Shown here: positions 2 through 63,099 of the stretch, piece after piece
How the letters are laid out: each line of letters begins with the position of its first letter
How positions within the stretch are numbered: the stretch's first letter is position 1
Assembly: GCF_964194025.1 (NCBI RefSeq)
Contig: NC_134476.1
Coordinates: 37,386,001 to 37,450,000, forward strand
DNA length: 64,000 nt
Reading direction: 5' to 3'
Source of the DNA: Convolutriloba macropyga
Lineage: Eukaryota
The notes under the pieces: model-generated
Seen by the model: the letters and a program-made list of their open reading frames with translations, nothing else
Told to the model about the DNA's origin: nothing
Database searches by the model: none
Translations under genes and position numbers: made by a program

Positions 2-706
2 AATTATTACAGGAATATCCGAGAAAACTTCAATAATTTGTCGTACAACACTTTTTTCTGAAAGTTGATCGAGACCGTATCCGGGTTTTGGTAAACTTAT
101 CGAACGTATGTGGTACTTCAAAATGACGAATCGTAGTGTGTGAAGGGCAACTGAGAAGTAGTAATAAGTAGATTTATCATAATAGTTTTCTTTCCTGACC
201 AGGCTGAAGATATATCGATTTAAAGTCGTATCATAAAATGATAAAACTGAAACTATTGGCGGTTTTCGCGCAAATGCTTGACTCTGCGGTATTTCTGTGT
301 AATAGTAGGCAATTTGCCGGGCAAAGCCTTTACGCATCTTCATATCACTTGATACACAATGTACAAAAGAGCTTCTGGAGTTAAGTATATCACCTCTATG
401 ATAGAAGAATTTGGCTCTTGTTTTTCGAATTTCAATTACAATTAGGTTTGAAGTAGTTTGTTTGCTCTTTGACTGGATTCGGGTTACTTGTCTGTTCTCA
501 TCAGTTGAGCCTCGTTTATATCTCTCAATGCTAGATCGTACTTGGTCTAGTTTCGTTTCTCTAGTTGGAGTTTGATCCCTTCTTGATCTGCGCGAAGATT
601 CTGTAATTATTTGGTGTTTTTGTTCTTTTGTTAAGATTGGTGGCTGTGTAGGAGATTCGGGCAATCGTGGCGTTTGTGAACGTGAACCGTAGCGTGCTAC
701 AGGTTT
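2..706 (-). CDS. Pol C-terminal tail with TARG1/OARD1 (Poa1p-like) macrodomain; open frame runs off the window
   Basis: Hand translation: ~95 aa R/S/T/P-rich spacer, then FYHRGDILNSRSSFVHCVSSDMKMRKGFA...RYIFSLVRKENYYDKSTY...ISLPKPGYGLDQLSEKSVVRQIIEVFSDIPVII (418 to 2). This is collinear with human TARG1 motifs as recalled: YVKGDLF/LAHCISEDCRMGAGIA/RYIYYLITK/SMPRIGCGLDRL/IEEVF. In-frame TGA at 707-709 upstream. Confidence 0.88.
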
Positions 707-2729
707 TCAGGATTCAAATTTTCTGACTCCGAGCCAATTAATCTTTTGACCTGTTTAGTTGTTCTTGGCATCGTAATCTTCTTTGAAAACTTTTTGATTT
801 TCTCTGCTTGTGGAGATATTCCCTCATTTGTAATTGTGCTGCCCAGAAATTTGATTGACTGTGAGGCAATTTCACATTTTTCTGGTGACAATTTCAGTCC
901 AGATCTTCGGATGCAGTCAAAAATTTTCCTTAGACTAGTAAGTAGCTGACTAAATTCTGTTACTGCACTCCCAATATCGTCCATGAATTGTGTGCATATA
1001 CAGGCTGCTAGACAAGGGTCTAGATAATGGCGAATGAATGAACTAAAACCAGTGACTGATTTGCTAAGTCCTTGAGCTAGACATTTGTACGCGTAAGTTC
1101 TTGATGAGAAATTGAAAGCTAAAAGTTGTACTGAGGTGTCGTCCGCCATCTGTACGCAATGATAAGCTTGTGAGCAGTCAAGTTTTGTGAACAACGTTTT
1201 TCCTGCAAAATGACTAGTTGCATCAGCCATGTTTGAGATTGGGAAATGAGTGCTGTGGTAGTCATTTTTGAGTAGGTGGTTGACTCTTCTCAGGTCAATT
1301 AAAATTCGCAGTTTGCCTGATTCTTTTCTATGTGCAAATAATGGACTACTGTATTTAGACTGTGACAAAGTTGTTATAAGTCCATAGTAGTGCATTAATG
1401 CTAATTCAATATGTAGTTCGTCACGTAGATGAATTGGGGTTGGTGGTCCTTGTACATATACGGGTAGGTCATGCTCTGGGGTTAACTTTATTTTTAGTTC
1501 CGTATTGTATCCAACATCAAATCGGTGTTTGGCAAAAATGTCACAATATTCAATTAATAAATGCTCGCATTCTTCGATTTGCTTCTGGTTTAATAACGAA
1601 TTTTCCCAGTTAAATTTACTGAGAGAAAATTTTTGGTCTTCCTCATTACTTCGTGGATCGACCTTCTCCAACTTTTGGAATTTTAATATTTGGTCATAAA
1701 TTTCTTGTTGTAAGAGCGGCAAATTACTTGGATCCTCGCAAGTTTCTGGTGTTGGAAACCATAGTTTACTATATTCGGGTGGAGGTCTCCTAGTTTGGCC
1801 TGGTTTGTGTTGAGTGAAATCTTGGATAAGTTGGTTCAATTCCGCAAAATAATCATCTTTGTTTCTTGATTTTGCTAACGTTATCAGTTGTGGGTCAATT
1901 TGTATCAATTGGTCGGCTTGCTCGGTTGAGAGGATTGAGAATCTGCCCACCACTGTTCGACTATTAATTGTAATAGGGTGCTCAGTTACGTTCAGAGCAG
2001 AAACGTACAGTGTATTGTTGTTTCCTACAGTACTTAGCGAAGAAGTTAGTGCGATTTCCGTTTCTTTTTCAAGAATTTCATTGGGAGTGATTACTCCACT
2101 TTTGTTCTCAAACTGATCGGTTTTGTCTGATAGATAGCATTCCAGGAAAATTTGCTCGTTGGGCTGTATTGTGTGCTTCTTGTTTGTGTAAATGGGAATT
2201 TTCTTATGTCTTACTGATCGTCGTTTTTCGTTCACAGGCTTGATTTCATTAATTTGAACTGTCAGATCGGGCAATTGAATAAAGGCTTGTTTTGGGCTAA
2301 TTAAAATATCATGCTTGACAAAGAAGGGGTTGCCAAGGATGACCGAGTTTGTTGAGGAAAGGACGAGGAAGTCTTCAGCAAACTCTCTGTGAGCGAGTTT
2401 AAATTTAATTTCAGCTTGTTTCTCTATTCAGACTAGTTGTCCTCCAGCCATTTTAACTGAAGTGCAATCTGGTTGCTTCAATATGACTGCATTCTTGTCA
2501 GTTTCGGTAATTTCTAGGAGTAATCTGTTGCTTATGACATTTGCACAAGCGCCGGTGTCAATTAGTGCTCGACGGCTTATTCCGTTATTAAATTTAATTT
2601 TGACATAGGGAAGAAGGGATGATCTCATATTTGAGTTTATATTGTAAAGATTAAATAGTTTACTAGACTGCTCTGTAGATTTGGAAGACTGTTTGCGACT
2701 TTTGGGCGTTAAGGGTGGCTTTATTAGTT
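697..2729 (-). pseudogene. pol: pol of element A: protease, dUTPase-like domain, RT; truncated after RT
   Basis: One frame from the frameshift site: LIDTGA and ILGNPF protease motifs with a premature TGA at 2428-2430; RT motifs YSSPLF, IDLRRVN, KLDCSQAY, LAQG (1069-1080), FMDD (976-987), KC..IKFLG. Homology ends at KQVKRLIG (~733); RNase H and integrase are absent. Confidence 0.92.
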
Positions 2730-3905
2730 TTTTGATTGGCGATTAAATGGAAATGAGGTTCCTCTATTATTAGTTCTACCTCTCTGAGAACATTGACTTG
2801 ATCGATGATTTGGATAACCACATGTATAACAGAAAGTACCGCTAGATCTAGGCACAGGCATATATGGGCTGGTGGGCATGCGAAATTGTGACTGAGATAT
2901 GAAATTTCGAGGATAAAACACTTGAGCGTTAGTGTTTGGGAATCGGGGTCTCGGATTTCTATTAAGGAAGCTTCGACCTCTAGGATTGTTTCCTCTGTAA
3001 GAGTTCTGATACAGTTGGCTTGCATAGTTATTTCTGGGCGTGTAGGGCACTGCGGGAAATTGCCCCTGCCTACTAAATGATTGCTGGGGAGAGTGAGTTA
3101 CGTCTCTCTGTGTTGTTTCTATCTGTGCCGCCGTGATGCGGTCGTCAATTGTTTGAAGCTTTTTGTCTAGTGAATCTTGCGTCTGGTTCAATTTAGAGAG
3201 CGCATTGATCAAGTTTTCGGACATGGTGTTATTAATTTCATTGAACCCATCTTCCGGATAGTCATCTTTTCTGCACATGTCTCTAATTGTCATCTGTTGT
3301 CGAGCAGTGGTGCAGAGATCGGTAACAAGCGTGGCTGGTGGTTGTTCCATCAATTTTGATCGCAGCCATCCCGGCATGGCTGCGATGAAGATTAGTTTTA
3401 CTTGTTCGTTCTTATTGTCCTCCGCCGCTTGCAATCTAGCAGCTCGTGCGGCTGTTTCTCCATCGAAGCGTGCGTGCTCTGCTCTATCCCCTGCTCCTCC
3501 ATCTCCTGGAAGCGCTAATGCTGCAACTGCTGGCAGATTTGGCGTTGGATACGCACGCTGAGCCTTTGTTTGTAGGTTCACTAGGAAATTTTCGGGGCTG
3601 TCTGTTTTTGGGTCAAATCGCAGTTGTTCTAATTTAAGAACGTGTACTTCTTGCAAATCTTGATTCGCGAAGTGGTCCCTGAGTGCTGTGAGACTTAATT
3701 CAAGATCATTTCTGGTTGCTTCGGGCAACGTTTGAAAATATCTTAACGCGGCGTCTCGGAGTTGGAGTTGCAAAAAATTTGATTGTTGGTTGGCAGGAAT
3801 TGCTGCGACACCAATAAAACCTCGGAAAAGGTGCTCAAATTGGCGGAAACTTTGATTTTTGGCTCCGCTATAGGGCTCTACTGTTATTTGGGCGTTTGCG
3901 GCCAT
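2724..3905 (-). CDS. gag: Gag of element A (393 aa, intact)
   Basis: ATG start, retrotransposon capsid-like N-terminal half, R/N/P-rich linker, zinc knuckle CYTCGYPNHRSSQC (CX2CX4HX4C). Confidence 0.92.
   Translation of the reverse strand: MAANAQITVEPYSGAKNQSFRQFEHLFRGFIGVAAIPANQQSNFLQLQLRDAALRYFQTLPEATRNDLELSLTALRDHFANQDLQEVHVLKLEQLRFDPKTDSPENFLVNLQTKAQRAYPTPNLPAVAALALPGDGGAGDRAEHARFDGETAARAARLQAAEDNKNEQVKLIFIAAMPGWLRSKLMEQPPATLVTDLCTTARQQMTIRDMCRKDDYPEDGFNEINNTMSENLINALSKLNQTQDSLDKKLQTIDDRITAAQIETTQRDVTHSPQQSFSRQGQFPAVPYTPRNNYASQLYQNSYRGNNPRGRSFLNRNPRPRFPNTNAQVFYPRNFISQSQFRMPTSPYMPVPRSSGTFCYTCGYPNHRSSQCSQRGRTNNRGTSFPFNRQSKN
2727..2733 (-). promoter_or_regulatory. -1 ribosomal frameshift slippery heptamer A-AAA-AAC (gag/pol)
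   Basis: Minus strand reads TCA AAA AAC TAA at the gag stop; the -1 frame is open without stops into the protease ORF. Confidence 0.85.
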
Positions 3906-3978
3906 CTTAGTTTCTTATAATTTTAAAACTGCACTGGATGAAATTAAAGGTGATGATCTGGATGGGCTGGGAATGCAA

Positions 3979-4323
3979 TTATTCAGAAATTACGATGAGG
4001 GGAGATTCAAAATCATCTAAATCAATGTCATAGCCATGGGTCATGAGATGTCTAACTTTAGAAAATTCGCGTGCTTTTTGTCGCAAGGTCTTGGGGATAA
4101 ATATTAAGGCGCGTTTGTCAATAGAATTTTGAGTTAAAAGCAACATTTGTTTTGGTTTGTCAGATACAAAGGCACTAACAACTGTTGAGATAATAAGGTT
4201 GTTAGTTTGGGGGCTAATGAATTGTATATAGTTACAGTCTACATATTCCACAAAATGATTTGAGTTGCGGCAGTTATTAATAACAGGGAGTATTTGGGTA
4301 TTATATAAATCGCGGGAAGGCAT
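3979..4323 (-). CDS. Leader accessory ORF3 of element A (114 aa, unknown function)
   Basis: ATG-started intact ORF (MPSRDLY...) between PBS and gag, same strand, ending 73 nt before the gag ATG. Confidence 0.55.
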   Translation of the reverse strand: MPSRDLYNTQILPVINNCRNSNHFVEYVDCNYIQFISPQTNNLIISTVVSAFVSDKPKQMLLLTQNSIDKRALIFIPKTLRQKAREFSKVRHLMTHGYDIDLDDFESPLIVISE

Positions 4324-4465
4324 TTTAATTTAGCACCAAAATTTATATGTTCTAACTCACAGTTTCCAAATTGACTCGATTTGGTTGCCAATAAGGGGTT
4401 TCACTCTCTCATTCTGTGTGTATGTGTCTCAGTGTGACGTCACTGTCATTTGGCGTCACCTTCTT

Positions 4466-4633
4466 TTAGACTCCAATCTCTGTTGCATTGACAATTGATA
4501 ATTGGAACGAAAAGCTAATGGCGCTGTTTGTCATGAAGAGGTAAATGAAGAGTGCTGTGATCAGATAATAAGCAATGATGGAGAAGATAAAGAATGCTGC
4601 AGTAAAATATAAGCAAAATTTGTTGAGAGACAT
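4466..4633 (-). CDS. Leader accessory ORF2 of element A (55 aa, predicted transmembrane micro-protein)
   Basis: Hand translation MSLNKFCLYFTAAFFIFSIIAYYLITALFIYLFMTNSAISFSFQLSIVNATEIGV*; about 29 consecutive uncharged, mostly hydrophobic residues. Too short for the ORF track. Confidence 0.5.
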   Translation of the reverse strand: MSLNKFCLYFTAAFFIFSIIAYYLITALFIYLFMTNSAISFSFQLSIVNATEIGV

Positions 4634-4663
4634 CGGTAATAGGACAACTATAAAGTACTAAGT

Positions 4664-4996
4664 TTAATTTGAATCTCCGCTTTCGCATATTAATTGAGTT
4701 TTCAGGCTTTCTAAGTGGAGATGCATTTCCCTTTTAATGTGCCTAATTGCTGCTTTGAATTCATACTGATTGTCGAATGATACTATTGCAATGAGCCTGT
4801 CTCTATAGTCTTCTGTAAGTCCAACAATAAAAATAATGAAAATTTTATCTTCAAGAAAGATAGAGTACGTTTCTGCGGAGGTATTTTCGATGTTGGGGCT
4901 TCCGTAAGAAAAGAGTGTTAAATCAAATTTGTGCAGTTGTCTAACTTCATCTGAATCGTGCAATTAACTCAATAATGTTTTGAATAGCAATGGCAT
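4664..4996 (-). pseudogene. Leader accessory ORF1 of element A (~110 aa, one premature stop)
   Basis: ATG at 4996 is in frame with the 99-aa track ORF: MPLLFKTLLS*LHDSDEV...; single TAA at 4964-4966. Confidence 0.5.
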
Positions 4997-5067: not shown

Positions 5068-5081
5068 CACTCCTGTCACCA
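5068..5081 (-). promoter_or_regulatory. Primer binding site, tRNA-Leu-like
   Basis: TGGTGACAGGAGTG directly after the LTR end; resembles the complement of the eukaryotic tRNA-Leu 3' end (...CACTCCTGACACCA). Confidence 0.75.
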
Positions 5082-5387
5082 TGTAATATACCTTTGTCCG
5101 GCTATATTATTGCGTTGAATTTGTTGAAGTAATGTTTCTCGCTAGTTTAATTAACATCTTAATAACATAACTTTTGTCTCTTAAATTATTCTTTTCACGT
5201 GATTGTTCAGGGCCTGAGCGGGTTTTCAATTTTACTTCGGAGCAGGGCCGACAGCTATTAGTTTTGTCACTAGAGAAAAGGGGGTTCCAATCTAAGACTG
5301 AATTTTTTGTCTGCTGATTTATAACTTGACAATCTTGGTTGTGTCGCTTAAATTATTACTTTTTAAGACCTGAGGGTCGTATTTACA
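5082..5387 (-). repeat. 5' LTR of element A (~306 bp)
   Basis: Bounded by TGTAA...TTACA inverted termini and abutting the PBS; the partner LTR is outside the window, so the outer boundary is inferred. Confidence 0.75.
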
Positions 5388-7854
5388 TTTGAGTAATCAC
5401 TTATACAAATACATCAAGATTAACTCAAGATAAATAGAACTTCTGGCGCGTGCTGACACGTGCCAGGCAAATAAGATGAACATAGTAAAGTGTACATTGT
5501 AAATATAAATACCGGTTAGCACTATCACAAATTCCTCTGTTATGGGTAAATCAAATAACAAAAGATAATTAAATGGTTTTTAGAACAAATATACTTGAGA
5601 AAGTTTACAGGATATTAAATAAAGTAAATATACATTTTCTCATCTTTAGGAACAAAACGTACTTTAGGACGTTACACAGCATAATCAACAAGAGACGCTA
5701 TAGATTGTTTCAGTTGACCCAAATTCTGATTATATTTTCATCTAAGCAAAATAATTATAATTTTCATAGATTTGCAAAACGATGATAACCTTTCAAAGAA
5801 TTAATAAAAATCTTTTATTGCTAGGAATTCCAAAATACATTACCCCCAAATTAAATGACCTATGATGCGCATTATTACTAAGTAAAAAAACGATGGCGGA
5901 ATGTCTAAAAACTACAGCTTTAAATTTTGGTCATAGCAAAAGTGGAAACTCAAGCAAAATGGCTCGCATGATTCTGTACATGGCAAAGAAAGTTCCCATA
6001 CTTTTGGCATCATTCAGAGTATTATGTCACTACATTGGGTGGGCTACAGCAATAACACTTGCATTCGTAACATAATTTTGCTTTCAGTAGGCCACCGATC
6101 AGATTTTTGCTTCAGTAAGTTCCCAAGACAGGGCGCCAAATCAAAAAGATGGATATAATCAAAGATATATCAAAGATATCAAAGATCAAAAGATATCGAA
6201 TTACGTTCATTTTTGATTGAAACTGATATCTACGCCCAATCCTTATCCCAACGTCTACAGCGAGGTGCAGTGAATTTTTACTGAAAAATAATGTCAATGC
6301 TCTACAGTATCGCGTGAATGAACTTCCAAACATTAAAAAGAATCAAGGTTAAGACGATCATGAAAAACACTTGATGGTTGAAGGATGCAAGGAAATGAAA
6401 TTGGAGTCCTAACAAGCCTGCATTATCTTCACAAAGCGAAAGCAACCACAGTTGAGTCATCTTGTAAGAAATAAACAAAATCTCTCAAAACTACTCTTTC
6501 AGAATGACATGAAATTTTTATTCCAAGTCAGAAACCAGTCGGTTCCAAAAAGTGGTCAGACAAATCGTTTCAAAAATACTGATACACTGACGTTCAGAGA
6601 TGACAATAGAATACTCAGCCAAAAACAAAATTAGGCTCCATAGATTTTTTTTGTTGGGATATCACAAGCCCAGCTTTTTGGTCGACAACATTCAAAGAGA
6701 ATGTAAACATTCCACAAAGGGATCTTATCTTTCAAGTAAGTAAAGCACCCCAAGTTACAGAGCATGTGTAGTTAAAAACGAACCGTTTTGTAAAAAAAAT
6801 GACAACCCCTAAAACTGGGGGTACAAAAGTAGAGGATTCAAATAAGCGATGCGTAACTTCAACAACAGGAAAAAAACTCATGCAAAATTTGGAATTCGCT
6901 CATAACAACGCGAAGCTTTATCAGCGCATCAATTGACCTGAAAGTATATCGGCCGCAATAATACATTGGAGCAATGCCTCTGGTATAATTTGTATATATT
7001 ATATAATTAAGCTGAAAAGCGTCAGAATTGGCCAACCAGTCAAAATTGTTGCCAAAAAGAATAAACAAAAAGAACAAGAAAAAGAACAAACAATTTTCAA
7101 AAACTTCAGCTTCAATCCGCTGGTCACCCAAGAAAAAAATCAATAAAGCGAATCTGACCTTTGGAAGCTTCACAAAAACAGCCTTTCAAAGATTGACAAA
7201 ATGACTGCCGCATTGTCAACCTCAAAAACATTGCAAAAAATTAACTGTCACCCCATAAAAAATCTCATTAAAGAAATTTGCCATTTACACCAGGAAGCTT
7301 CGCTAAAACAGCATTGAAATGATTAAAATATGATATAATCTATGCAGCAACATTAAACATCAACAGTGATTTCTGGCATCATGTAGGATACTTTGCCTGC
7401 ATTATCACAATAATATGCAAAAAAACTTAAGCCGCCAATTTTTTTCCACCTTTTAAAATAGTTAGTGAAACTAAAAAATTCGAAAATTCTCCCCACTTCA
7501 TCAGAAATAGTAACTTTTGAAATTGCAATCTGCTCTGAAACTTTATGGTCATTGAAGACACAATTAGTTACATAAATTAAGATAAAAACTCTAAGAACGA
7601 TGCAAGAAGGGTACTCAAGAAGCTTAGATAAAACTTTCAATAAGCTTAGCGAATCGTTTAAACGTGATTGCACAATAAATAAAGAAGGCCAATCTGAAAG
7701 AGTCGCAACGTCATCGAAGTATGGTCTCTTAATATTAGTGAAGTTAAAAAGATAGATAACCAAGTTGACGAAATTTATTTAATGCAAGCTGAGAAAAATA
7801 ACAAGAAGGCACAGTAATGTGAGTTTGCACCTAAGGTATCAAATAAACTTTAAA

Positions 7855-14246: not shown

Positions 14247-15330
14247 TGGCGCAGTCAGACAAAATAGGACGCACGGCGCTAGGACTTGAACCCTTCTGGA
14301 ACAAACCTAGCAGTAACCCACCAATATCATGGGAGAAATGGAGGAGTCAACTCAAAATGGCCCTCGTCGCTAAGACAAACATCGAACTAGATGAACTACT
14401 CGAAGGAGACCGACGACAGTCATTTACCCCCCCCCCCCGAACCGGTAGAGGAACAACCCGCACAGAATCCAACACAAGCAATGGAAAGAGAACGAATAAC
14501 GAGGTACCACCAGGCAATAGCCAAATGGAAAAACGAATGTAATCAAATCGATGGAATAGGGGTCCAATGCGGCGACAAACCATGGGACATGGCAGATAGA
14601 AAAGCCAAACCTCTGATCTACCTTAGCCTCGGAAGTGAAGGACGAAAGATGCACGCAAGAAAGTTATCCCACACAAACGTGGAATCAAAATCAACAATGG
14701 AACTATGGGACGAATTAGAGCAAACGTTCATCCGCCCAAGAAATGTAACGTTCGATAGATACCTTCTGTTGACACGCAAACAACACCGAGGGGAAACAAT
14801 GGAACAATTCACTGTCAACTTGCCGATTTAGAAGATGAACTCCTAAGGGATATATTCAGCGCAAGCATGATAGATCAAGAGATACAAAAAGAACTGCTAA
14901 AAACAACCCTCACCCCAGAAAAGGCCCTCGAACTAGCAGTGAGTATCGAATTAGGCATCAGAAGCCAATTAGCCATACAGGCAGGGCAACCATTGGATGC
15001 TTCGGCAACACCATTTAATGGACGAGAGGAACCAGTCATGGAAATCTCAAGCTCACGCTTCCGGGGATCACCACCAACAACACCGCGAGGTATGGGTAGA
15101 GGAAACGGCAGAGGCATGAACAATAACAACATAGCATCCACTCACAACTGCAGGAACTGCGGACAACCCTGGCAAGGCGGACAACCCTGGATAGCAACCA
15201 CCGAGCAAGGTGCCAAGCAATCGGCCAAACGTGCCGCCGATGCAACAAACAGAACCACTATGCGAAGGTTTGCAGATCCAACCTTAATAGACCCCAATCC
15301 GGAAGATCTGTGAACGAAATCGACAACCAG
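14246..15330 (+). pseudogene. gag: gag of element B (frameshifted)
   Basis: MAQSDKIG...WEKW..., FDRYLLLTRKQ..GETMEQF, knuckles CRNC..H..C and CRRCNKQNHYAKVC spread over several frames. Confidence 0.9.
14247..14256 (+). promoter_or_regulatory. Primer binding site, tRNA-Ser-like
   Basis: TGGCGCAGTC immediately after the LTR; complement of a ...GACTGCGCCA tRNA-Ser-type 3' end. Confidence 0.75.
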
Positions 15331-15333
15331 TGA

Positions 15334-18300
15334 TTGGACCAACAAACACAGGGCATAAACATGATCTCACTAAACCCGGACACCCACTCGTCATACAAAG
15401 ACTCAGCGGACGAATACTCAGTTAACATGATGGAAACACCGGACGACCTCACAACACCATCAAAACTACAAATCCAATATGGTCAGAGTAAATTCTGGGT
15501 AATGGTTGACTCAGGAAGTTCCACTAGCATCGCCACGGAACAAATGGCGAAAGATATAGAGGCAAGAGACATCAACACGTGGTGGAGCAGAACAACAAAT
15601 CCACTGAAACTAAAGAGCTACACCGACACCCCTATAAAAACCCTGGGAACCCTCTACTGCGACATTGAGTGCAACGGCTGGAAGGCAGGACGCGTGGACA
15701 TCATAGTGGTCCCGGACAAACACCGAGCGATTGTGGGAAGGGACCTGTTCGAACCCCTAGGAATACAACTAAAACAACACGACTCCCCAAAGTCCTCAGG
15801 TAAGAACGTCAACTCAATAGACACCCCTCAAACCCCCTCAATCAAGGAAGAAGTAGCAATTAAATACAATAACCTAACAACCAGAATAGGACGATCCATA
15901 CACCATAAGGTAAAATCACAATTTAAGTCAAACTACACCCCCGTCCATCAAAAAGGAAGACGCGTACCACTACACCTCGAAACACAAGTAGAAGAACTAA
16001 AAAATTTACAGAAAAACAGACATATAACCAAACTAGAAAAATGTAGCGACGAATTTTTCATATCACCTATCATAATAACAGTGAAGAAAGAAATCAATAA
16101 AACGAGCAATGGAGTCGAAAACAATCAACAAATCAATTCACAAAAACAAATATCAGATGCACAACATCGACTGCCTAATGGACAGCATCGCACAAACCAT
16201 CACTCAATCGTCCGACGAAGGAGAAGTCCTATTCTCAACAATAGACCTACGCTACGCATACAGCCAATTACCACTCGATGACGATACAGCAAAAAAAATG
16301 CAATTTCAATATCATAGGCGGTCAAGCCAAAGGAACATATCGATTCAACACTGGATATTACGGACTAACAGATATGCCGGCAGAATTCCAAAAAGCCATA
16401 GACAAAATTTTATACAACCTATCGAATACATTGTTTTCTGGACGATATCATTATTGTTACAGGAGGTGGTTTACAAAACCATAAAGAAAAATTGTTCAAA
16501 TGCCTAGACAGACTAAATGAAGAAAACCTGGCAGTAAACGTTAATAAATGCCACTTCGCAAAAATAAGATAACTTGGCTAGGCTATGAAAAAGACCAAAA
16601 AGGTATTAAACCAATCGTCTCTAAGACACAGGCAATACTTAATCTGAAGCTACCCTCATCCCATAAACAACTCAAATCATTCTTAGGAAGCGTCCACCAC
16701 CTAACGAAATTTATACCAAATCTAGCACCCCTATGTCGCGAATTAAGAAACTTACTACAAAAAGATACGAAATACGTATGGACAAATCACCACCAAACAA
16801 AGTTCGAAAACATAAATAAATGCATACGCAACCTGACAGAAAACACACATTATGACACAAAAAGAAAGACCGGAGTTAAAACAGACGCATCAAGATCGGG
16901 CCTAGGGGCAGTCCTCGAACAAGAAACTTGCAACGGGAGGAAGACAATATCCTACGCCCCAAGATGATTAAATAAAGCAGAAAAAAATACAGTATAAACG
17001 AATTAGAATTATTAGGAGTTGTATGGGCGTTAGCACACTTTAAACACTATTTATTAGGTTACCATTTCACAGTACAAATCGACCAGAGGGCTCTTCTATC
17101 AATGCTTAAAGAACGATCAAGTAAAATCCACCAAAGCCGCCTAACCAGGTGATACGATAGATTAATTCGATCCAATTTTACTATAGAACACATAGCCGGA
17201 ACAAAGATGGGACTAGCAGATTACATGTCCCGAAATCCATCCGAACCTGCAAAACCCCCGAGCACTTATGACGAAAATTTTATAATAGCTCAAATAGACG
17301 TCATAAAAAAACACTAGAAATCATACGTAAAAGAGGCAGACCAAGGAAACTAAACAATAACAAAACACAGCACAACACATTAACGACGCACAACGATTCC
17401 AATGACACAAACAAATACAATGGAATCGTCCAACGATTCCAACCATTCCCTATATTGCCAAACCAAACGACAGAGATGCAGGCCCAGAAAAGCAAACGTG
17501 GAATCGTCGACCGATTCCACACTAACAAAAAACAATACCGACAAACGCGGTATGACTACAAACAACTCACCAAAGAATAGAAAACACAGCCTACGCAGCA
17601 GTCACAAGACATTCCAAATACAACAAAAACAACGGATAATGACGTCACTAACAATACGCAAGACAAACAGCAAACGAATACACACGCGCATTTGCCAATT
17701 AACACAGCTATACTCCAACAGCATAATTCAAACAAACAACACAATTTAACAAATCAAATGGAGCACACAACAAATAACCCAAATAGCGCCACCGCGAAAT
17801 CACCAGTGCAGAAAACATCCTTCTCAATGAGCAACTACCTAAGCCCTACCCCAAAAGCATCGCCTCCTAAATCAGACGACCAACTCTCAAAACAACTGGA
17901 GAGCGTGTTCAATCAACAACTAATTGCAGCAATGATCAATAGAGATACGGTGCAACGGGAGATCAGAGACTGCATAACCAATGAGGACCAAGCTCGATGC
18001 AAAAGCCTGAGCAAGCAGATATACGCAAAATGGGGAAACCTAAGCGTCAACAACGGCTGCATACTGGTGGACAACAAATTAGCAATACCCAACATCCTGA
18101 AGGAATCTGTAATGAACGTCCTCCATGCAACGCATCCAGGAGCGTGGGGCATGACTGAACTAGGGCAGAGATTATGGTGGCCATTCATCAACCGAGATTT
18201 AATCAATAAATCCAAAACGTGTCAACCCTGTACCGAATTTGGTAAGAATCTTAAAAGCTTAATACGAAAGTCCGATTGGACACAAACAACAAATACACAA

Positions 18301-19612
18301 TAGACAAAAGTCCGATAAACAAATACATAACCCAACACGGAGTACCTAGAAACATTAGACTAGATCAAGCCAGATGCTTAAAAGGTAATAAAATACAACA
18401 ACTATGTAAACGATACAACAATGAATTATTATATGCCCCAGCTAACGACCATCGCCCAATAGGACTAGTAGAACGTCTAGTACAAACCGTCAAACGACGA
18501 TTGGGCTGCATAAAACTCGACCCCAATCAGAAACCGTTCAATATTAAGAACGCCCTACAAAACATATCATTTGAACTACGCACATGCAGAAAGAAAAATT
18601 CAAAACTCTCCCTTATCGAAGCCCACTATGGAAGAAAAGCGAACACCGCACTAACAAACATAACATCTAAACCAAATATCAAAAACTTAAATTGGTCAAA
18701 CACTTTAAATACTATTTAGATGACAACATCATAGGAGAAGAGGAACTCATCAGTCAGGAAAAATGGTATGACGAGGATCTAGATAGTGATGCCGAAGTAA
18801 AAGCAACGAAACAACGGAAGCTACAGGAGGCCAAAGATGACGAAGGTGAAGTACCCCGAATCATCAAACTCCCAGCCGCCAACTTCGAAGAACCATTAGC
18901 CAGAAACAGCCCTCGACTCCAATTAGCCCGCAAAACTCTTGCCGCCTCGCGAAACAAGAAGCAACTGCAAGGACTCTATGAGGCCATTCCGGTGGGGGCA
19001 GCACTCGTCAAAACAGCTGACAGCACAGTAACGATCAAAGTACCAGGCCAGCAGGACACCTCAATAAATCTGATGTCGCAAAATTCGGCACGCCAGAGCA
19101 ACGCCACATTCGTCATTAATTTCGCCGCCAGAAAGACCGTGCGCAATCATCATGCAATGCTCATACAGAGCATGGAATCACACGCACAAGACATCAAAAA
19201 CAAGATCGTCGGCCAACGAGCCATCCGCAAAAGAGCACCCCAAGCGTCGGATTTAGACAAAAAGGCAAAAGCCAACCTCGCAAAGGTCAACCGCATCAGA
19301 ATCCCACCTAAAAGAACCTATCAGCCATCACCCAGAAAAGGATCTCCCAAAAAGAGAAAGCTCTCGACGGCATCATCACAAGAGTCAGCAGACGAACAGG
19401 GCGACGAACTCCACGAGTCCGATACTAGCCGAGATTACAAAGCCGCACCCAAACAACCCGAAAGTACATTACTAGTGGAAACAACTGGAGCATCCACCCG
19501 ACGCAGAGCACGAGACAAAAAGAAGCCGAAACGGTACGGTGATCTCACAGAAATGTCATCCTCGGATGAATCGTCGGACAATGACAAGCCCCAAAACATC
19601 GAAGAGGAATAA
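15334..19612 (+). pseudogene. pol: pol of element B (PR, RT, RNase H, integrase, long C-terminal tail)
   Basis: VDSGS protease; ISPII, IDLRYAYSQL, FLDD (16435-16446); TDASRSGLGAVL, ELELLGVVWA; HATHPG..CQPC; HGVPRNIRLDQ, GLVER. Multiple frameshifts; the first catalytic Asp region of the integrase core is missing near 18290. Confidence 0.93.
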
Positions 19613-32800: not shown

Positions 32801-33367
32801 TCAAAAAACAAAACGCATGTAACTGCACTTTATTTTCCGTAAACTATAGCATACATATATGCTTCCGCACTATTTATATACTCAAAACTAATTATTCCAA
32901 ACATGAAAACCAAAATGCATTTCTTCCTTTTTGAAAAAGTTTCGCTCTACAAGGGTCGTCGGTCAATTCGAGGGCAACATATCAACACACTCCTATATAC
33001 AAACAAAATCTGACAGCCAGCAAGAGCGAAGGACGTCGTATGAAATAAGTACTCAATAAACGCAGTTGGAAGAAATCAAATTGATCAGAAAACATTTAAG
33101 ATTTAACCACAAAAATAGAAAAGAGCGTTCATCGATGATCGTCCGAATTGCTAATTCGACTGGAAGGCGCACGAATAAGAATCTTATTTCGAAGTAACAT
33201 CGAAAAACATTTGTCAGCAACAGAAATTGTGTAACTTCAGGCAGCCAAAAAAACGTTCTCAAATTCTACAACTCGCTTAGATATCATGAATAGCATGAAA
33301 AGGTTTTCGAAAAGAAACGCCTCTCCCCAACACTCCAACACTCGGTGAATATTGGCTGGTAAGGGGC

Positions 33368-34280
33368 CCTCCCCGCTCGACGCCTACTGTTCTCACCTCT
33401 ACTACAAAGAAGCTGTCAAAAATATCAATAGATACCTTAAAGATCTTAATACCTTCTTCCATAGAAAACAGTCGTTTCCCTCGCCCTGGAAGTGCTCTGC
33501 CATTCTACTATCCACCACCCACTCAGACTGGAAAGATTTAGATGTTGTTCTGGGTACGGACCGGACAAAAACAGTCAATGATCATTACTCGTTCCACCTT
33601 CAACTACGCTGCTCCTTGCTGGTCTTTGAATGTTTCCAAAACCAATTGGAATAAGCTTGAAAGTAAACAAGACAAAGAATTGAGAGTTGTAACTGGATGA
33701 ACAAAAATGACCCATATTGACTACCTTCGCCAAGAAACGAGACATCTCACCGTAGAAAATCACTGCAAAGTTTGACAGCCCAGTTTGCAGCCTCAATTCA
33801 TGAACCCAACCACCATTGCAATGATCTATTGACGAAACCCACCTATAAATGGAAGGAAACGCTTTTCAGTTTTGCAAGAAATTGTGAAGAACGTATGAAG
33901 TTGAAATGGAAATTCCAAAGGCGCAGAAGACCCCACACAGCAAAGTCGTTGATTTTACGATGAGAAACAGTGAACCCAACAGATTACTTCACCCCATTCC
34001 CAGCCTAACCCCGAAGAACTTGACAGAGGCGAGCCAGGACTCTTCCGAGAAGAAAGAAAATTCCTCTCTGAAATGAGGTCTTCCTATTGCCCTCTGTTAG
34101 ACTTCAAAAACAAAATCAACAGCGACGAATCAGATACTTGCAGGAAATGCCATAAAGAGCGTGAATCAGCAGCGCACGTTGCTGAACAAGTTGGTGGAAT
34201 CAAGTGCGAAGATCGTTGGTGGTCCTCCGAAGAATCGATCTCGACGCTAGAAGAAATCCTGGTCTAAACAACAACACAAC
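33368..34280 (+). mobile_element. 5'-truncated non-LTR retrotransposon (I-group/Ingi-like), present only in duplication unit 1
   Basis: RT thumb-like ITRSTFNYAAPCWS..KLESKQDKELRVVTG, C-terminal CRKC..ESAAHV..C, stop followed by a (CAA)-like tail; absent at the equivalent site ~36710. Confidence 0.75.
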
Positions 34281-34329
34281 AATACTGCGACGTCTTCTTC
34301 GAAAGAAAGGGAAAATAATCTAAGGCCAC

Positions 34330-35180
34330 ATTAAACCATATCAACATTAGCGAAAAAGTAGAACAAGTCAAAAAGCATCAAAACATTAAAAAAGCCTGCG
34401 GCCTAGACGAAATTGAATCATTGTCTTTAAAAAGGCAGCAATACAAAATCTTGCATTAAAGCACCAATCTGCAAAGTTGGACAAGGCGGAGATCTCAAAC
34501 TACAGTCCAATTGCCCAGCTAGTTAACGCTTCAAAATTATTTGAAAGAGTGTAGGGAAAAGAGATCAAATGTACTGAAGCTGTTAATCTACCTCGAGTAA
34601 GTCTAGGGAAAGCTCGACTTGAGGTACCCAGAAATTGTTGCCATTAATTCGGACTTGCTCAAAATTTTCGATGAAAATGTCGCCTGAAAAATTGATACAT
34701 AAAATCAGTCAAATTGGAGTTTGGGTAAGCTTCTGTAGCAACCTGCTAGTTAGTTAACAGACCGTAAACAAAGGTTTACAGTGAGAAAAAGTCTTATCAA
34801 GTGCATCAGTTATTACTTCGGGCGTACCACAAGGTTTATAATCGGGCCACTCATGTTCATAGTGTTCACCAATGAATTGCCAGAAAACACATGATCGTTA
34901 ATAAAATCGAATAGGCCAACAACATGCTGTAATTCACAAAACAAAACCCAGCCAGATGAAAAATGAAAAAACACAGCAAAATTGAAAAATCTGCTCCAAT
35001 CTCGAGACGAGGCAGAACTGGAATAAAGCAACTATACAGAATTTTTATAGCGGTGACAAAAATATTATCAATATGCACATCGAGCTACAAGACCATCCAA
35101 TTCAAAATTTATGCATCAGAAGACAAAACTCTTAAAACGACCAGAACGATGCTGCAAACGGAGCTATAACGAATTGAAAT
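34330..35180 (+). pseudogene. Decayed CR1/L2-like RT fragment (unit 1, internally deleted)
   Basis: KACGLDEI, NYSPIA, SGVPQGL..GPLMF motifs. Confidence 0.7.
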
Positions 35181-36769
35181 TCCTCTTGACACGTCTCAAA
35201 AAGTCCAAAGAAAACTTCTGAATCCTTGCACATTGAGCTAAAAGACCTTCCAATTCAAAAATTACGCATCAAAAGACATTTTCTATAAGTACCAGAACAA
35301 TGCTGCTAAGGGAGCTATAACGAATTGGATTTCTTCTTGAAACGTCCAAAAAAATTCTGGATCCTTGCATCAAAGCTTTAAAACAACCAGAAAATGCTCG
35401 AAAAGGCAAAAATGAAAACGAACATGATTACAAAATTCTATATCACCTAATTTCGACGGTGCTACAACGATCTCGACACCTGCCCGCGGCAAAAGTTAAG
35501 TTCCCGCAGAATATTTTAATCATGTTGAATTGAAAGATTGACATTAATTTCGAATTTTTTCAACAACGAGGTCTCATGTCTTAGAGGTCCTCAATACAAG
35601 TTTTTTTGCACTATCAGAACCAACAACACTATCTAATAGTCTATAACCACCAACTATTTCAACTTATTTTTAAATGTTAACACAAATCCACTGTGATATT
35701 TCAAAATGATGTTTTTCGGTAATAAAATTGCACTTGGTAAGATGACAAACGAAAGCAGGATCACGCTTTTTCAACGAGTCAAAAAAACTTTTCCAACTAT
35801 CAACAAATCCGACAGCAACATCACAAAGAAAATCTCTGGATCCTTGCACCAACGCTACGAAACAGCCAAAATATCCTCAAAAAAGCAAAAATGAACAAGC
35901 AGATGATGATAAAAATCTATCTCAACTACTTTCGAGGGTGCTGCAACGATCGCAACACTTGCATATGGCGAATCTTAGGTTCCTGCAGAAGCTGTAGCCC
36001 ACAAAAAAACCAAGCCAGATTACAGTTGAAGAATTCATCACCACCCGTGCATTACGCAAAAACCACTACTACTGCTGCTAGTACTAAAAAACTTTGTTTT
36101 CCTAGTGACTCTCAATAAAAAAACAAATACACATAGATATCAGTTTTAAAAAAAAGCAAAACAAAAGATATACAACTATTCAAAACAAAGAAAATATTGG
36201 CAAGCTACACCGGTCAAACTAATAGCTTCCCTTCGTCAACATCAAGGCCCATTGGGGCATCAAAAATCTCAGGGCGCCTAAGTGTCATAGAGCCTCGAAT
36301 GCAGAAGATGGAGCTCCTAAGAAGATCAAGCAGATATTTGATCTGAGGTATAACATGATGTAAGCGTCGCTGTTGTTTTCTTGTGGAGAGAGCGAAGGAG
36401 GTTGTATAAGTACTCAATAATCGCGGTTGGAAGAAAACAAATTCATCAGGAAACATTGAAGATTTAACCGTAAAGTTAGAAAACTTCGTTCATCAATGAT
36501 GGTTCCAATTGCTGATTCCACTGGAAGGCGTACGAATAAGAATCTTATTTCGAAGAAGCAGAGAAAACCATTTTTCAAAAACAGAAAATGTGTAACCTCA
36601 GGCAGCCAAAATGATATTTTTTAGATATCATGAATAGCATGAAAAGATTTTTGAAAAAAAATAAGAAACGCCTCTCTCCAACACTCGGTGAATATTGGCT
36701 GGTAAGGGGCTCACACAGCACAACATCTTCATTGAAAGAAAGAAAAATCAAAAGCCACATTAAGCCATA

Positions 36770-38050
36770 TCAACATTAGCGAAAAGGAAGTAGAACAAGT
36801 CATGAAACATATAAACTTTATCAAAGCCTGCGTCCCAGACGAAATTGAAACATTGTCTTGAACAATGCAGCTATACAAAATCATGCACTAAAGCACCAAT
36901 CTGCAAAAATAAAGACAAGGCGTAGATCTCAAACTACAGGCCAATTGCCCTGCAGGTTGACGCTTCAAAAATATCTGAAAGAGTGCTATTCAACAGGCTG
37001 TATCCTTTGATAGAAGAGGCTCTCCATCCTTCCCAATACTGCTCGAGGGAAAAGAAAATAGTTATACTGCAGCTGGTATCCTACTTCTAGAAAATCTAAG
37101 GAAAAATCGACCCGAAGAAGCCAGAAATCGTCCCCCTTTATGTGGACTTAGGCAAAACTTTTGATAAAAATGTTGCCTGAAAACAGTGCATAACCTCAGG
37201 AAAATTGGAGTTGGTGGTTAGCTTTTGCAGCAACCTGCTAAATGGTTAATTGATTGATGAACAAACGATTAGAGTAGGAAAAGTCACATAAAATGCATCA
37301 GCTATCACTTTGGGCGTATCACAAGGGTTTATAATGGGGCCACTCATGTACATGGTGTTCTTTAATCATTTGCCAGAAAAAAAACCATCGTTAAAAATTT
37401 CGATTATGTTGACAATATGTTGTAATCCACAGAACAAAACGCAGCCAGATGAAAATTGTTGTTCAAAAGCAGAGGAGAAACAAGCGCATCACTCAAAAAA
37501 TTGACTGCTTGAGCATCAAAAATGACAGGTAAAAAAACAAACCAAAAACGAAGAATCTTTTGCTCCAATCTCGAGACGAGGCAGAATTGAAAAGCAACTC
37601 TACAGAACTCGATCGCAGTAACAAAAATAATGGTTACAGTAATTAGTTACAACCTTCAATGTACTGAGAACTTTGCAAGGTGAGCGGCAAACTCGCTTAA
37701 ATGTTTCCAATTTATAAAAAGAAATACTTCTCCAAAAGTATTAATATCTACAAAACTAAACGCATACATCAGTTACGTAGTCCATGTAATCACATATGGA
37801 TTCCAAGTCTGGCATCCTTCCAAACCTGATATGAGAAATATCGATATAATAAAACACAGTACTGCATGGATTCGCAGGACAAGATCAGATTACAAAAATA
37901 CGCTCATTGCTCTAAACATCCTGCATTTGTCCTTGCACATCGAGCTACAAGACCATCCAATTCAAAAATTATGCATCAGAAGTCAAAACTCTTAAAACGA
38001 CCAGAACGATGCTGCTAACGGAGCTATAACGAATTGAAATTCCTCTTGAC
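36770..38050 (+). pseudogene. Decayed CR1/L2-like RT fragment (unit 2)
   Basis: KACVPDEI, NYRPIAL..SKISERVL, YVDLGKTFDK, GVSQGFIMGPLMY..NHLP. Confidence 0.78.
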
Positions 38051-38388
38051 ACTTCTCAAAAAGTCCAAAGAAAACTTCAGAATCATTGCACATCGAGCTA
38101 AAAGACCTTCCAATTCAAAAATTACGCATCAGTAGGCAAAATTGTTATAAGACCAGAACAATGCTGCTAATGGAGCTATAGCGTATTGGATTTCTCCTTG
38201 ACAGGTCCCAGAAGTTCAAAAAAAATCTGAAGCCCTGCACCAAAGCTACAAAACAATCAGAAAATACTCCAGAAGGCAAAAATGAACACGAACATGATTA
38301 AAAAATTCTATATAAACTACTTTCGGCGGTGCTAAAACAATCTCGACACCCGCCCATGGCAAATGTTAGGTTCCCGCATAAAATTTGA

Positions 38389-39060
38389 GCAGTAGTAGTA
38401 GTAGGAATTTGGCCCTTCGATGTCGTCGGGCGCGGGGACCGTGTCCCTTTTCTTTATCCATGGTTGCTGTTAAATTTTCCACGTATCGCTGACTAGTTCA
38501 TTGTAACTCGTTTCAAAATGATGCCACAGGAAATTGAGCAGTCGACTTTTCAAACCCGCTGCATTTCCAAATTGTAAACTGTGGAAGTCTATTCATAAGA
38601 GCACAAGTTCTATAGAAGAAGCATCGCTGGCAAATTTCAAGATGTGGTTTTGAATGGTCGAATTTCAGATCGTTGTCACTCCGATCTGAGTTATCCACAA
38701 AAGAAAACCAAACAAGACGACACCAACCGTTCATAGGAGACTTCAATATTAGGGACTCGAGGAATTAAGAACTTCAATTTATGCCTACATGATGAAGCGA
38801 ATATTTGAAACATGTTAGGTGAAAGAGTGGTATGAATTTCTAGCTTTTCAACAAAGACATCCCCTGTCTCAGAGGTCCTCAATACAAGTTCTTTTTGCAC
38901 TATCAGAACTTATAACACTATCCAATAGAGTATAACCACCAAATATGTCAACGTATTTTTAAATGTCAACAAAAATCCACTGTGATGTTTCAAAATGATG
39001 TTTTTCGGTAATAAATTTGCTTTTGGTAAGATGACAACCGAAAGAAGGATCATGCATTTT
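38389..39060 (-). mobile_element. 3' end of a CR1-like LINE with (TAC)n tail
   Basis: LEICQRCFFYRTCALMNRLP resembles CR1 C-terminal FFxR..N.LP; tail TACTACTACTAC on the minus strand at ~38391-38404. Confidence 0.6.
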
Positions 39061-39886
39061 CAACGAGTCTAAAAGACTTTTCCGGCTATCAATAAAGCCG
39101 ACAGCAGTATTATAACAAAACTTCTGGCTCCTTGCACCTTATCTAGAAAACATCCAGAAAAACCTCAAAAAAGCACAAAAGAGCAAGAAGATGATAACAA
39201 AATTTGGTGTTAACTAATTTCGACGGTGCTACAACGACCTCGACAACTGCACCAGGCAAATGTTAGGTTCCTGTAGAAGCTCTTTTCCGCAAAAGAACCA
39301 AACCAGATAGCAGTTAAAGAATTTATCGTCAACCGTGCATAAAAAAAACTTAAGAACTTTGTCTTCATTAAAATTGTCAAAAAAAACAAATACTCACAGA
39401 TATCAGTTGAGAAAAAAAGCAAAACCAAAGTTATCCAACCATTGAAAACAAAGAAAATAATGGTAATGTACATGAGTCAAACTAATAGCTTCCTTTCATC
39501 AACAGCAATACCCACTGGAACAACAAAAAATATCGCAAAGTCTAAGTGTCTTAGAGCCTCGAATGCAGAAGATGCAGCTCCTTAGGAGAACGAAGCTGGT
39601 ATCTGTTCTGAGTTATAACTTGATGTAGGCGTTGCTGTTGTCTTTATGCGGAGAGAGCTTCAATGCTAGTTGCTTCACCTCTCATATAGCTGTTGGGCCC
39701 ACTCCACCATTTGAAAGAAAGAAATTTGTTTTTTTTAATAGTATTTTCTTCATGCTCGTAACTCCCGCTATGGTTTTCTTGGAAATTTCTGCTAGCAGGA
39801 TGATAATTTTTAATTGAACAAAATGTGGGCAATAGACGAACAGCATTAGAGAACGTGAAAGCCTCATGCCCATCATTGCATGTTGC

Positions 39887-42880: not shown

Positions 42881-43414
42881 TTTCGACAGAGGATTCTGCT
42901 TTCTTTTTGAATTACATTTGTTTATAATCAGAATTTTTAATATTACCTAATGCTCTACAAGCAACTGTACTAGAGCTCAGCTTACTACTATTAACGTGGT
43001 GACAAGTGGCGCATGAACAAGACCAAACACCTCCACCCCTAACAGGGCTTAAACAATCTGAACGGTGTCACTGCTCGAACAATAGTGAGCAGCAACTAGA
43101 TTGGTTGCTGTGAAGTGGACATAAGTGCTTCCTTATAATTTTAAAGTTATAGCCGTTAATTCTGAAAAATAAAAACAATTAAGTTACAAAACTAACCGAC
43201 TGCCACCTAATTCATTCAAAGATAAATTAACAGCTCCAGTTTATTGAAAGAATAACAAAAACGATGCTCCGCGATTTTGGACAAATTGGTTGTTCAAATC
43301 TAAATTATATGAAAAATTATGATGATAGAATACAAAAAGCAAGAGCTGGTTTCTTTTCAACCAGGAGAGAAAGAGAAAGACTATATTATTGTATAAGGAT
43401 AGATGGCAATAATT

Positions 43415-44216
43415 CCCGGGCCGAGGAATTTGGCCAAAATTATGTAAGATCAGCGGCAACTAGCGTTGACAAGTCGGAAAATTCACCGCAATTTTCTTAC
43501 ATAATTTTGCGTTGAATGCGTTGAATTTAAAGACAAAAATTCAACGCATTCAACGCAAAATTATGTAAGAACTGGCGGTGAATTTTCCGACTTGTCAACG
43601 CTAGTTGCCGCTGATCTTACATATTTAGCGTTGAATTTAGCGTAGATCTTACATATTTAGCGTTGATATTAGCGTAGATCTTACATATTTTTGCGTTGAA
43701 TTTAGCGTTGATCTTACAAAAAATTTATGTAAGATCTACGCTAAATTCAACGCTAAATATGTAAGATCTACGCTAAAATTAAACGCTAAATATGTAAGAT
43801 CTACGCCAAATTTCAACGCAAAATATGTAAGATTGGCGTTGAATGCGTTGAATTTATGTAAGGTCTACGCTAAATTCAACGCTAAATATGTAAGATCTAC
43901 GCTAAAATTCAACGCTAAATATGTAAGATCTACGCCAAATTTCAACGCAAAATATGTAAGATTGGCGTTGAATGCGTTGAATTTATGTAAGGTCTACGCT
44001 AAATTCAACGCTAAATATGTAAGATCTACGCTAAAATTCAACGCTAAATATGTAAGATCTACGCCAAAATTCAACGCAAAATTATGTAAGATTGGCGTTG
44101 AATGCGTTGAATTTATGTACGATCTACGCTCAAGCGTAGATCTTACATAAATTCAACGCATTCAACGCCAATCTTACATAATTTTGCGTTTTTTAGCGTT
44201 GACACCTCGGCCCGGG
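43415..44216. mobile_element. Foldback element with CCCGGGCCGAGG TIRs and modular ~32-bp internal repeats
   Basis: Perfect 12-bp TIRs; unit AAATTCAACGCTAAATATGTAAGATCTACGCT in both orientations; 129-bp higher-order repeat x3; internal palindromes centred ~43533, ~43720 and ~44130. Confidence 0.88.
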
Positions 44217-61600: not shown

Positions 61601-63050
61601 GTAGGCGAGCGTTGCTCTAATGCTGCTCGTAACCCCGCTCTAGATGCATCGCTTTTGATCCTCGTTTCCAAGTGTGGTTGCAACTTTATTTTTAATTGAT
61701 TGAAAGTGGGTTTCATGTTCATCATTCCAAACAAATTTTTCATTCTTTTTAAGTGATGGCCGTAGTGGGTGGAACAATTAAGATAGGTTAGGGATGAATT
61801 TTCCTATATAGTGAACAGAGCCTAAGAATGATCGTAGTTGTTTTAAGTTGTTTGGTGCTGGTAGTGATAAGATGGCCGCTGTTTTTGATTCAAGTGGTGC
61901 GATTCTTGACTGAGTAAATTTATGTCCTAATCATTCAATTTTGGTTTTAGCGAAGTGACATTTAGGTAGATTTATTCATAAATTATCCTCATCTAATTTC
62001 TTTAAACAATTATAGACTAACTTTAAGCGTTCTTCTTTAGAACCTCGACTAACTACGATTATCTTGTCCAAAAAGCAATAAGTATTTTGAAGTCCGACTA
62101 ATGTATAATCCATTACTTTTTGGAATGCCGCTGGAATATCAGTTAGTCCGTAGAAACCGGTAATAAAACGGTAGGTACCGGTTCCCTCACCACTAATAAT
62201 ATTAAAGTTACAATGCCGAGCCGTTTTCGGGTCTAGATTAAGTTGACTGTATGCGTACTTCAAATCCAAAGTCGAAAAATATGCTGTCTCTTGTGAAGCG
62301 TTTGTATTTAAATTTTGTTGAATCGTGTCAATTAAATTATCAATATTCGGCATTTGGTATTTATTTTTATGAATAGATTTATTCAAAATTTTGGAGTCTA
62401 AAGCCAGTTTAACTGTTTTATCTCTCTTTACTGTGATAACTATTGGGGAAATGAAGTTTTTATCTGAACAACTGTTTAATTTTATGATAGGTTTTTCGTC
62501 AAGTGGTTTTTTAAGTTCTGAATTAAATAATGGTTTTAAATTAATTGGGACTCGTCGTCCTTTTTGATTTGTAGGTGTACACTGTTATTGAAAAATGGGT
62601 TTTACTGAATGTGTCAATGATTTACCGATTCTTGTGATGAGACCTGGAAAATCAAATGCAATCTGTTTCTTGATTAAACATTGACTTTGATCAAAATTTG
62701 CGACTTGTTTCAATTGTGTGAGAGAAAAACCTAGCTTTGAGAAGAGATCTCGTCCAATGATGGGGAGATGACCATCTTCCACTACTGTTACATCAACGCC
62801 CGCGGCTATCTAGTCATTACTTTTGATTGATGTATTAATCACACCAGAAATCTTGATTATATCATTAGAGAAATTTTCAAGTCATGTATTTCTGGTGACT
62901 GTACCCAGTACCTTCCTTTGCACGCTGACACCACCGCGTTTGCGAGGCTTTTATTAATAATTGTGCACACGCTTCCTGAATCCACCAATGCTTTTGTCGT
63001 CGTATTCTCGATACAAATGTCCAAATTCACTGGTTCCACCTCGCGAGTGT
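58700..63050 (-). pseudogene. pol: pol of element C
   Basis: LVDSGS; FISPIVIT, LDLKYAYSQL, FLDK (mutated FLDD); SDASRAGL, ELELLGVVWS; HLTH..CKPC, HGVPRNIRLDQ, GLVER; many frameshifts. Confidence 0.92.
59018..59243 (+). repeat. Tandem duplication 2 x 113 bp in the pol tail of C
   Basis: gatgcattggacg at 59018 and 59131; apparently identical copies. Confidence 0.95.
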
Positions 63051-63099
63051 CGCTTTTTTAATTGAAATCGTCGCCACACAGTTATCATTATAGTCGTCA

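Follow-up and report, generated by a model that had tools for sequence, protein, structure and literature searches.

Whether three small open reading frames (ORFs) that lie closely packed between the primer-binding site and gag of a retrotransposon of Convolutriloba macropyga are genes, and what their products might do, is the question raised by the locus described here. Ty3/gypsy elements are usually seen as consisting of gag and pol, with or without env, alone, the main exception being 412/mdg1. Complex retroviruses of vertebrates are typified by their accessory genes, and such genes usually point to an ongoing fight with a host defence. The window, i.e., the whole stretch of 64,000 nucleotides that was analyzed, contains the following parts of the element:

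5082..5676, minus strand: 5' LTR of 595 bp, with TG...CA ends and a 5-bp target-site duplication
5068..5081, minus strand: primer-binding site, a 14-nt match to tRNA-Leu
4664..4996, minus strand: ORF1 (type A), 110 codons, an acidic protein with a predicted alpha/beta fold and a premature stop at codon 11
4466..4633, minus strand: ORF2 (type B), 55 aa, with a single long hydrophobic stretch and a short patterned tail
3979..4323, minus strand: ORF3 (type C), 114 aa, neutral to basic
2724..3905, minus strand: gag, 393 aa, already capsid domain at its N-terminus, with one CCHC knuckle
2..2742, minus strand: pol, broken, with protease, reverse transcriptase (RT), an internal deletion and a C-terminal macro-like region

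The window contains, on the minus strand, the 5' half of a Ty3/gypsy element which bears env, and the three frames sit between its gag and its tRNA-Leu primer site. The 3' LTR of the element lies ~6 kb beyond the window (in L048) and is 99.2% identical to the 5' LTR; elements of this clade are ~15 kb long. The assignment to Ty3/gypsy (Metaviridae) follows from the LTR pair, the target-site duplication, the primer-binding site, the order of the pol domains (PR-RT-RH-IN-Macro in the sister copy L041) and the RT, whose best PDB sequence matches are the Ty3 RT structures 4ol8 and 7q5b. The tRNA 3' ends complementary to the primer-binding site are present in the host genome, where ARAGORN calls tRNA-Leu. 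The end of gag overlaps pol and holds an A-AAA-AAC run, at which pol is presumably reached by a -1 frameshift. The window copy itself is defective, as its protease region is interrupted by a stop and its RNase H and integrase are lost through an internal deletion. Genome-wide, the tRNA-Leu 3'-end motif has 175 matches, with long tandem arrays at C11:45.17-45.22 Mb and C1:80.69-80.73 Mb.

The coordinates, strand and lengths of the three sense frames agree with the initial annotation, and the gaps of 30 nt (ORF1-ORF2), 142 nt (ORF2-ORF3) and 73 nt (ORF3-gag) were reproduced. Its claim that such tiling exceeds chance also holds: ATG-initiated ORFs of at least 50 aa cover 48% of the window leader, which is matched by 3 of 2000 base shuffles, and 72% of the leader of copy L003, where all three frames are open and none of 2000 shuffles reaches this coverage. 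Searching the host genome (1.18 Gb) at the DNA level returned at least 42 matches (40 of 84 candidates scored), and 36 near-full-length copies minus the rearranged L026 form a family set of 35 copies. The single stop that had been noted in ORF1, TAA at codon 11, is found in the window copy alone (1/35). The common MP start of ORF1 and ORF3 is present in the window and is not conserved, since ORF1 begins with MP, MS, ML or MQ depending on the copy. ORF1, ORF2 and ORF3 are open in 20, 22 and 14 of the 35 copies, respectively, and gag stretches of equal length in 15 (codons 1-110) and 18 (codons 111-210), so that the small ORFs stay open as often as gag rather than being broken neutrally while gag is kept.

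Selection was assessed by separating codon changes shared by at least three of the 35 copies, which mostly represent change during replication, from those seen in a single copy. For shared variants, dN/dS is 0.21 in ORF1, 0.24 in ORF2, 0.19 in ORF3 and 0.02 in gag, whereas single-copy variants are near neutral (0.94, 0.81, 0.92, and 0.81, respectively). Counts of synonymous, non-synonymous and stop changes differ accordingly, with 28/23/0 shared vs 42/149/6 singleton changes in ORF1 (Fisher p 7e-6), 13/11/0 vs 27/75/3 in ORF2 (p 0.013), and 27/19/0 vs 44/144/7 in ORF3 (p 4e-6). A synonymous excess among shared variants was also looked for in the shifted frames of ORF1-3 and none was seen. Between families, 11 of 16 pairs have a dN/dS of 0.10-0.42 and dS is saturated in three, with protein-guided pairing pushing the values of distant pairs downward; two of the 16 lack purifying selection (4.4, from very few changes, and 0.77). 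Because the frames are open, shared variants combine a low dN/dS with an absence of stops, and the shifted frames give no signal, ORF1-3 are genes under protein-level selection, ~10x looser than that on gag. This in-frame purifying selection on all three ORFs supports the initial proposal of accessory genes. Selection, the one line of evidence bearing on translation, makes it very probable that they act as translated accessory proteins.

Homologues of the three frames are located directly upstream of gag in many sister families, at 26-60% identity in protein searches, and leader homologues reach down to ~20% identity. Profiles of the three types (A, B, and C) have at least one match in 30 of 35 gag-bearing leaders, a scan which is partly circular, as many loci were picked by the profiles or used to build them. 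The arrangements found are A, AB, AAB, AC, ABC, AABC, C, and B, with the order A-B-C kept throughout, and five of the 35 leaders contain none of these genes, so that the cassette comprises zero to four genes. Type B is accompanied by type A in 11 of the 12 leaders that have it. The cassette is dispensable, because L063 bears env and is recently inserted (LTRs 99.7% identical) and yet lacks it. In a high-copy sister family (L067, L090, L100, L102), an ORF3-type gene occurs alone, with ~37-38% identity to ORF3, many tens of open matches among 150 scored, and a dN/dS of 0.10 between L067 and L090. Distant ORF1-type proteins are also found in databases, where the homologues are unnamed (P0138, P0140, P0141, P0145, P0146, P0148, P0152). 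Two of them were searched against the host genome and gave nothing above 31% identity there, which is why the ORF1-type family probably occurs in other hosts as well. A gag tree built by a quick method for 30 of the 35 rows leaves 11 of 27 inner branches open and does not allow gains and losses to be ordered.

The AlphaFold2 model of ORF1, built from the natural open copy L037, is confident (pLDDT 89, pTM 0.82) and that of ORF3 moderate (pLDDT 75, pTM 0.64). In both, an N-terminal helix leads into two short strands and a meander of three strands, after which come a helix, a short turn and a last strand. The kinship at which the initial annotation hinted is borne out by these like predicted structures; support from sequence is weak, with an hhalign probability of 2% (E 0.022) for an alignment that is in register and A/C cross-profile scores of 12.9 vs 1.9 bits for reversed controls in one direction and 7.5 vs 6.6 in the other. 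By the order of their predicted elements, compared without superposition, ORF1 and ORF3 are likely paralogues. Of 21 type-A sequences, 20 are acidic, with a net charge of -1 to -10, and type C is neutral to basic. No column is invariant among the 21 type-A sequences, and an invariant catalytic set was found in neither type A nor type C.

Foldseek searches of both models against PDB and viral structures, the follow-up proposed for the two frames, gave no match at E<=0.001. With VIA-align, the KTSC domain 7x8c ranks first for ORF1 (Z 5.5, rmsd 2.3, 62 of 69 residues aligned) as well as ORF3 (Z 5.2, rmsd 2.6, 66 of 69), both scores lying below Z 8 and hence in the background range of the tool. 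KTSC domains bind single-stranded nucleic acid. Most of the 69-residue chain is covered, but identity is 8-10% and the N-terminal helix is extra in ORF1 and ORF3. Two phage KTSC proteins surface weakly for ORF3, and no match to KTSC is found in Pfam for the 21 type-A members, nor one among PDB profiles. Pfam, PDB sequence profiles and the ESM Atlas (best 0.86) gave no assignment for either protein. A PDB profile match to YPD1 (E 0.008) was rejected, as the part aligned is a helical stretch, and rows for cystatin, Vif, SAS-6 and levivirus coat (Z 3.8-5.2) were taken as background. The predicted fold of ORF1 and ORF3 has no clear solved match.

An env-like frame is present in 10 of 11 elements followed to their 3' end. 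Five aligned Env proteins share a signal peptide, an R-x-K/R-R furin site, a hydrophobic (fusion) peptide downstream of this site and a membrane span at the C-terminus, a sequence pattern which corresponds to F-type Env; Pfam and PDB sequence searches with Env gave no match. The cassette is found in six of seven env-bearing families examined and is absent from the sole env-less element examined (L054). At the end of pol, L041 contains a Macro domain (Pfam Macro, E 4.6e-5); the macro-like piece in the window (2-421) has no Pfam match. Two further frames, both antisense, lie in the region of env:

L048:7550-8653 (plus strand), L091:6511-7575, L097:6052-7233 and L098:5576-6811: antisense JmjC-like frame, also in L094, L095 and L092
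L048:6849-7148 (plus strand): antisense Cys-containing membrane ORF, with equivalents in L094, L095, L097, L098 and L099

The former, of 217-412 aa with an HxE...H pattern, is located between pol and env, and its JmjC matches are weak (Pfam JmjC_2 at E 7e-4 in one of six scanned; profile match to PHF8 at E 0.17). The latter, of 73-116 aa, is oriented head-to-head with env at a distance of 118-382 nt, which suggests a bidirectional internal promoter, by analogy with the env promoter of Tor3b/4b.

Signals in the leader that may bear on how gag is reached behind these frames are the following:

4355..4360, minus strand: splice-donor-like GTGAGT in the ORF2-ORF3 spacer, putatively used
4332..4337, minus strand: GGTGCT, with the repeated leader motif GTGCW, 13 nt before the ORF3 ATG
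3928..3934, minus strand: GTGCAGT, acceptor-like or a GTGCW motif, ~25 nt before the gag ATG

The donor-like site of the window is intact in 23 of 35 family copies (median of spacer 6-mers 18) and GTGCAGT in 29, near the top of the spacer 6-mers (maximum 30). The equivalent spacer, defined as the sequence between types A/B on one side and type C or gag on the other, amounts to 7.1 kb in 23 leaders. It contains 15 GTRAGT in 12 of these leaders, as opposed to a mean of 3.4 (maximum 10) in shuffles and 5 on the antisense strand, and the remaining 12.8 kb of leaders contain one. For GTGCW, the count is 38, spread over 19 of the 23 spacers, vs a shuffle mean of 7.3 and 10 in the antisense control, and in 13 of the 23 leaders the motif is located 18-62 nt upstream of gag. 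Since the spacer was defined after the pattern had been seen and the families are related, this enrichment is at most suggestive of a retrovirus-like layout, in which a donor lies downstream of ORF1-ORF2 and repeated motifs come after it; the GTGCW repeats could be packaging, branch-point or initiation signals. The ORF2-ORF3 spacer shows no unusual RNA structure (z -0.31).

In a sister copy, 15 ATGs precede gag, and plain scanning therefore cannot reach it. Simple leaky scanning was rejected as well: all 13 leaders have a lower number of ATGs than their shuffles, yet 3-20 remain. Among related elements, Tor3a has a splice donor near gag and Tor3b/Tor4b an internal env promoter, in the text covered (PMC4402516), Cer1 is described, in the part consulted, as using both cis- and trans-splicing (PMC3315495), and for 412, the text covered gives no evidence that splicing is involved in making sORF1, sORF2 and Gag (10.1101/2025.03.14.642691). 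By analogy with 412 sORF1 and sORF2, respectively, ORF1 could be read by scanning from the LTR transcript and ORF2 by reinitiation or leaky scanning. Splicing from the donor immediately downstream of ORF2 would join ORF1-ORF2 to exons further downstream, and ORF3 and gag might be translated from differently processed RNAs or through internal entry at the sites marked by GTGCW. In the contigs of four runs, which cannot show absence, no DNA copy lacking the donor-to-acceptor stretch is found among the 15 of 56 joints listed, nor one lacking a narrower such stretch among five joints listed.

The eight aligned ORF2 homologues (45-65 aa) each contain a single hydrophobic span, with a 19-residue hydropathy peak of 2.0-2.8, and ORF2 is accordingly predicted from hydropathy to be a single-pass membrane peptide (8/8). 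Being small, with one such span, and located upstream of gag after a ~110-aa ORF, it resembles 412 sORF2, and it might be a cell-cell fusogen like FAST proteins and sORF2. The N-myristoylation motif MGxxxS/T is found in none of the eight homologues, as is also the case in two known sORF2, and a polybasic patch (at least three K/R among the 15 residues that follow the span) in one, ORF2 of the window having no K/R there. It is for want of this motif and patch that ORF2 departs from the sORF2/FAST criteria, as given in the part of the source covered (10.1101/2025.03.14.642691). The part N-terminal to the span is moreover short (~5-20 residues vs ~30 expected), and the family already has an F-type-like env, so that a fusogen is a very unlikely identity for ORF2.

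We tentatively favor, at a little short of an even chance, a cassette of accessory proteins which counter or co-opt host factors rather than serve core replication. Two small soluble proteins of one predicted fold and a predicted membrane peptide would act together on host factors, by binding host proteins in an anti-silencing or anti-restriction role. This reading is based on the small size of the proteins, the negative charge of type A, evolution ~10x faster than that of gag, and gain, loss and duplication between families, and on a cassette that is dispensable and accompanied by a macro domain and a JmjC-like antisense frame. Against it, ORF1-3 show no target, motif or catalytic site that would point to a role in host defence. 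A broader scenario is doubtful as a whole: the clade would have evolved its own alpha/beta effector family without solved relatives, duplicated, swapped and lost as a modular pre-gag cassette, and this family, joined by a membrane partner, the macro domain fused to pol and a JmjC-like antisense enzyme, would form a counter-defence kit in the style of complex retroviruses, of independent origin in invertebrate Metaviridae and with gag made from processed RNA alone.

Alternatively, ORF1 and ORF3 could be Rev-like or chaperone-like RNA-binding regulators of their own leader, balancing spliced and unspliced RNA. The first rank of KTSC obtained independently for both models, the weak phage KTSC matches of ORF3, the neutral to basic type C, the donor and GTGCW enrichment and the subnuclear location of 412 sORF1, as given in the preprint text covered (10.1101/2025.03.14.642691), are in line with such a function; however, the KTSC scores are those of background, Foldseek remains without a match, type A is acidic, and donor and motif are also present in leaders without the cassette (L054, L063-L065), which leaves RNA regulation unlikely. 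An assembly or egress module that replaces a missing matrix domain, with ORF2 as membrane anchor and ORF1 and ORF3 bridging capsid and Env, would suit a Gag that begins directly with a capsid-like domain, the company that type B keeps with type A, the co-occurrence of cassette and env, and 412 sORF2, which co-localizes with capsids at the membrane according to the same partly covered source (10.1101/2025.03.14.642691). It is quite unlikely given L063, with its open env, recent LTRs and no cassette, the many families without type B, and a comparison in which one env-less element was examined. Peptide-independent regulatory uORFs, or chance frames carried by recent descent, have in their favor the position of the frames ahead of gag, whose translation they must influence. 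Such an origin is extremely improbable and is already largely refuted by the selection and between-family tests, given the in-frame synonymous bias, conservation at 20-40% identity with saturated dS, the confident globular model of ORF1 and the distant homologues without a close match in the host genome.

Leader ORFs as such are already known. The MDG1 group (412, mdg1, Stalker, Blood, Tabor) carries sORF1/sORF2, which are likewise sense ORFs of low dN/dS between LTR and gag of Ty3/gypsy elements, with a ~110-aa soluble ORF followed by a short membrane ORF, in the text covered (10.1101/2025.03.14.642691). As far as that text goes, MDG1 elements differ in lacking env, in a predicted helix-turn-helix, mostly helical sORF1 as opposed to the alpha/beta models of ORF1 and ORF3, and in an sORF2 with the myristoylation motif and polybasic patch that ORF2 lacks, and the cassette described here comprises zero to four genes including probable paralogues. 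Env-carrying errantiviruses share gag-pol-env, a tRNA-Leu primer-binding site, near-identical LTRs and the F-type Env pattern (Chary and Hayashi, PMC13524379), a likeness in features, whereas the elements studied here are ~15 kb long and have a leader cassette, pol-Macro and antisense genes. The main text of that study makes no mention of accessory or small ORFs, macro or upstream of gag, and its supplementary table of 1512 elements may list the clade. Oikopleura Tor elements are also env-bearing Ty3/gypsy, and their donor near gag or internal env promoter are candidate routes here; unlike the present clade, they have no leader ORF cassette in the text covered (PMC4402516). Small ORFs before gag are also known from nackednaviruses, another virus family, and a literature search for a pre-gag cassette yielded these and the MDG1 precedents and nothing else; it turned up no description of the alpha/beta fold family or of its modularity.

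A whole clade thus keeps a variable set of accessory genes under selection, and two of the three ORFs belong to a small protein family which, by its predicted structure, has no clear known relative. Through the binding partners of ORF1-3, defences against transposons or viruses might come to light in an animal lineage that has been little studied, and the natural series of leaders with zero to four genes makes gag translation behind long upstream ORFs testable by reporters.

The window also contains other LTR-element remnants at 14759-19612 (plus strand) and 59505-63947 (minus strand), in which gag-, protease-, RT- and integrase-like frames were recognized by eye. Further repeats are a degenerate duplication of ~3 kb at 33000-39600, a palindromic AT-rich satellite at 43400-44200 and a 500-nt tandem triplet at 51287-52586.
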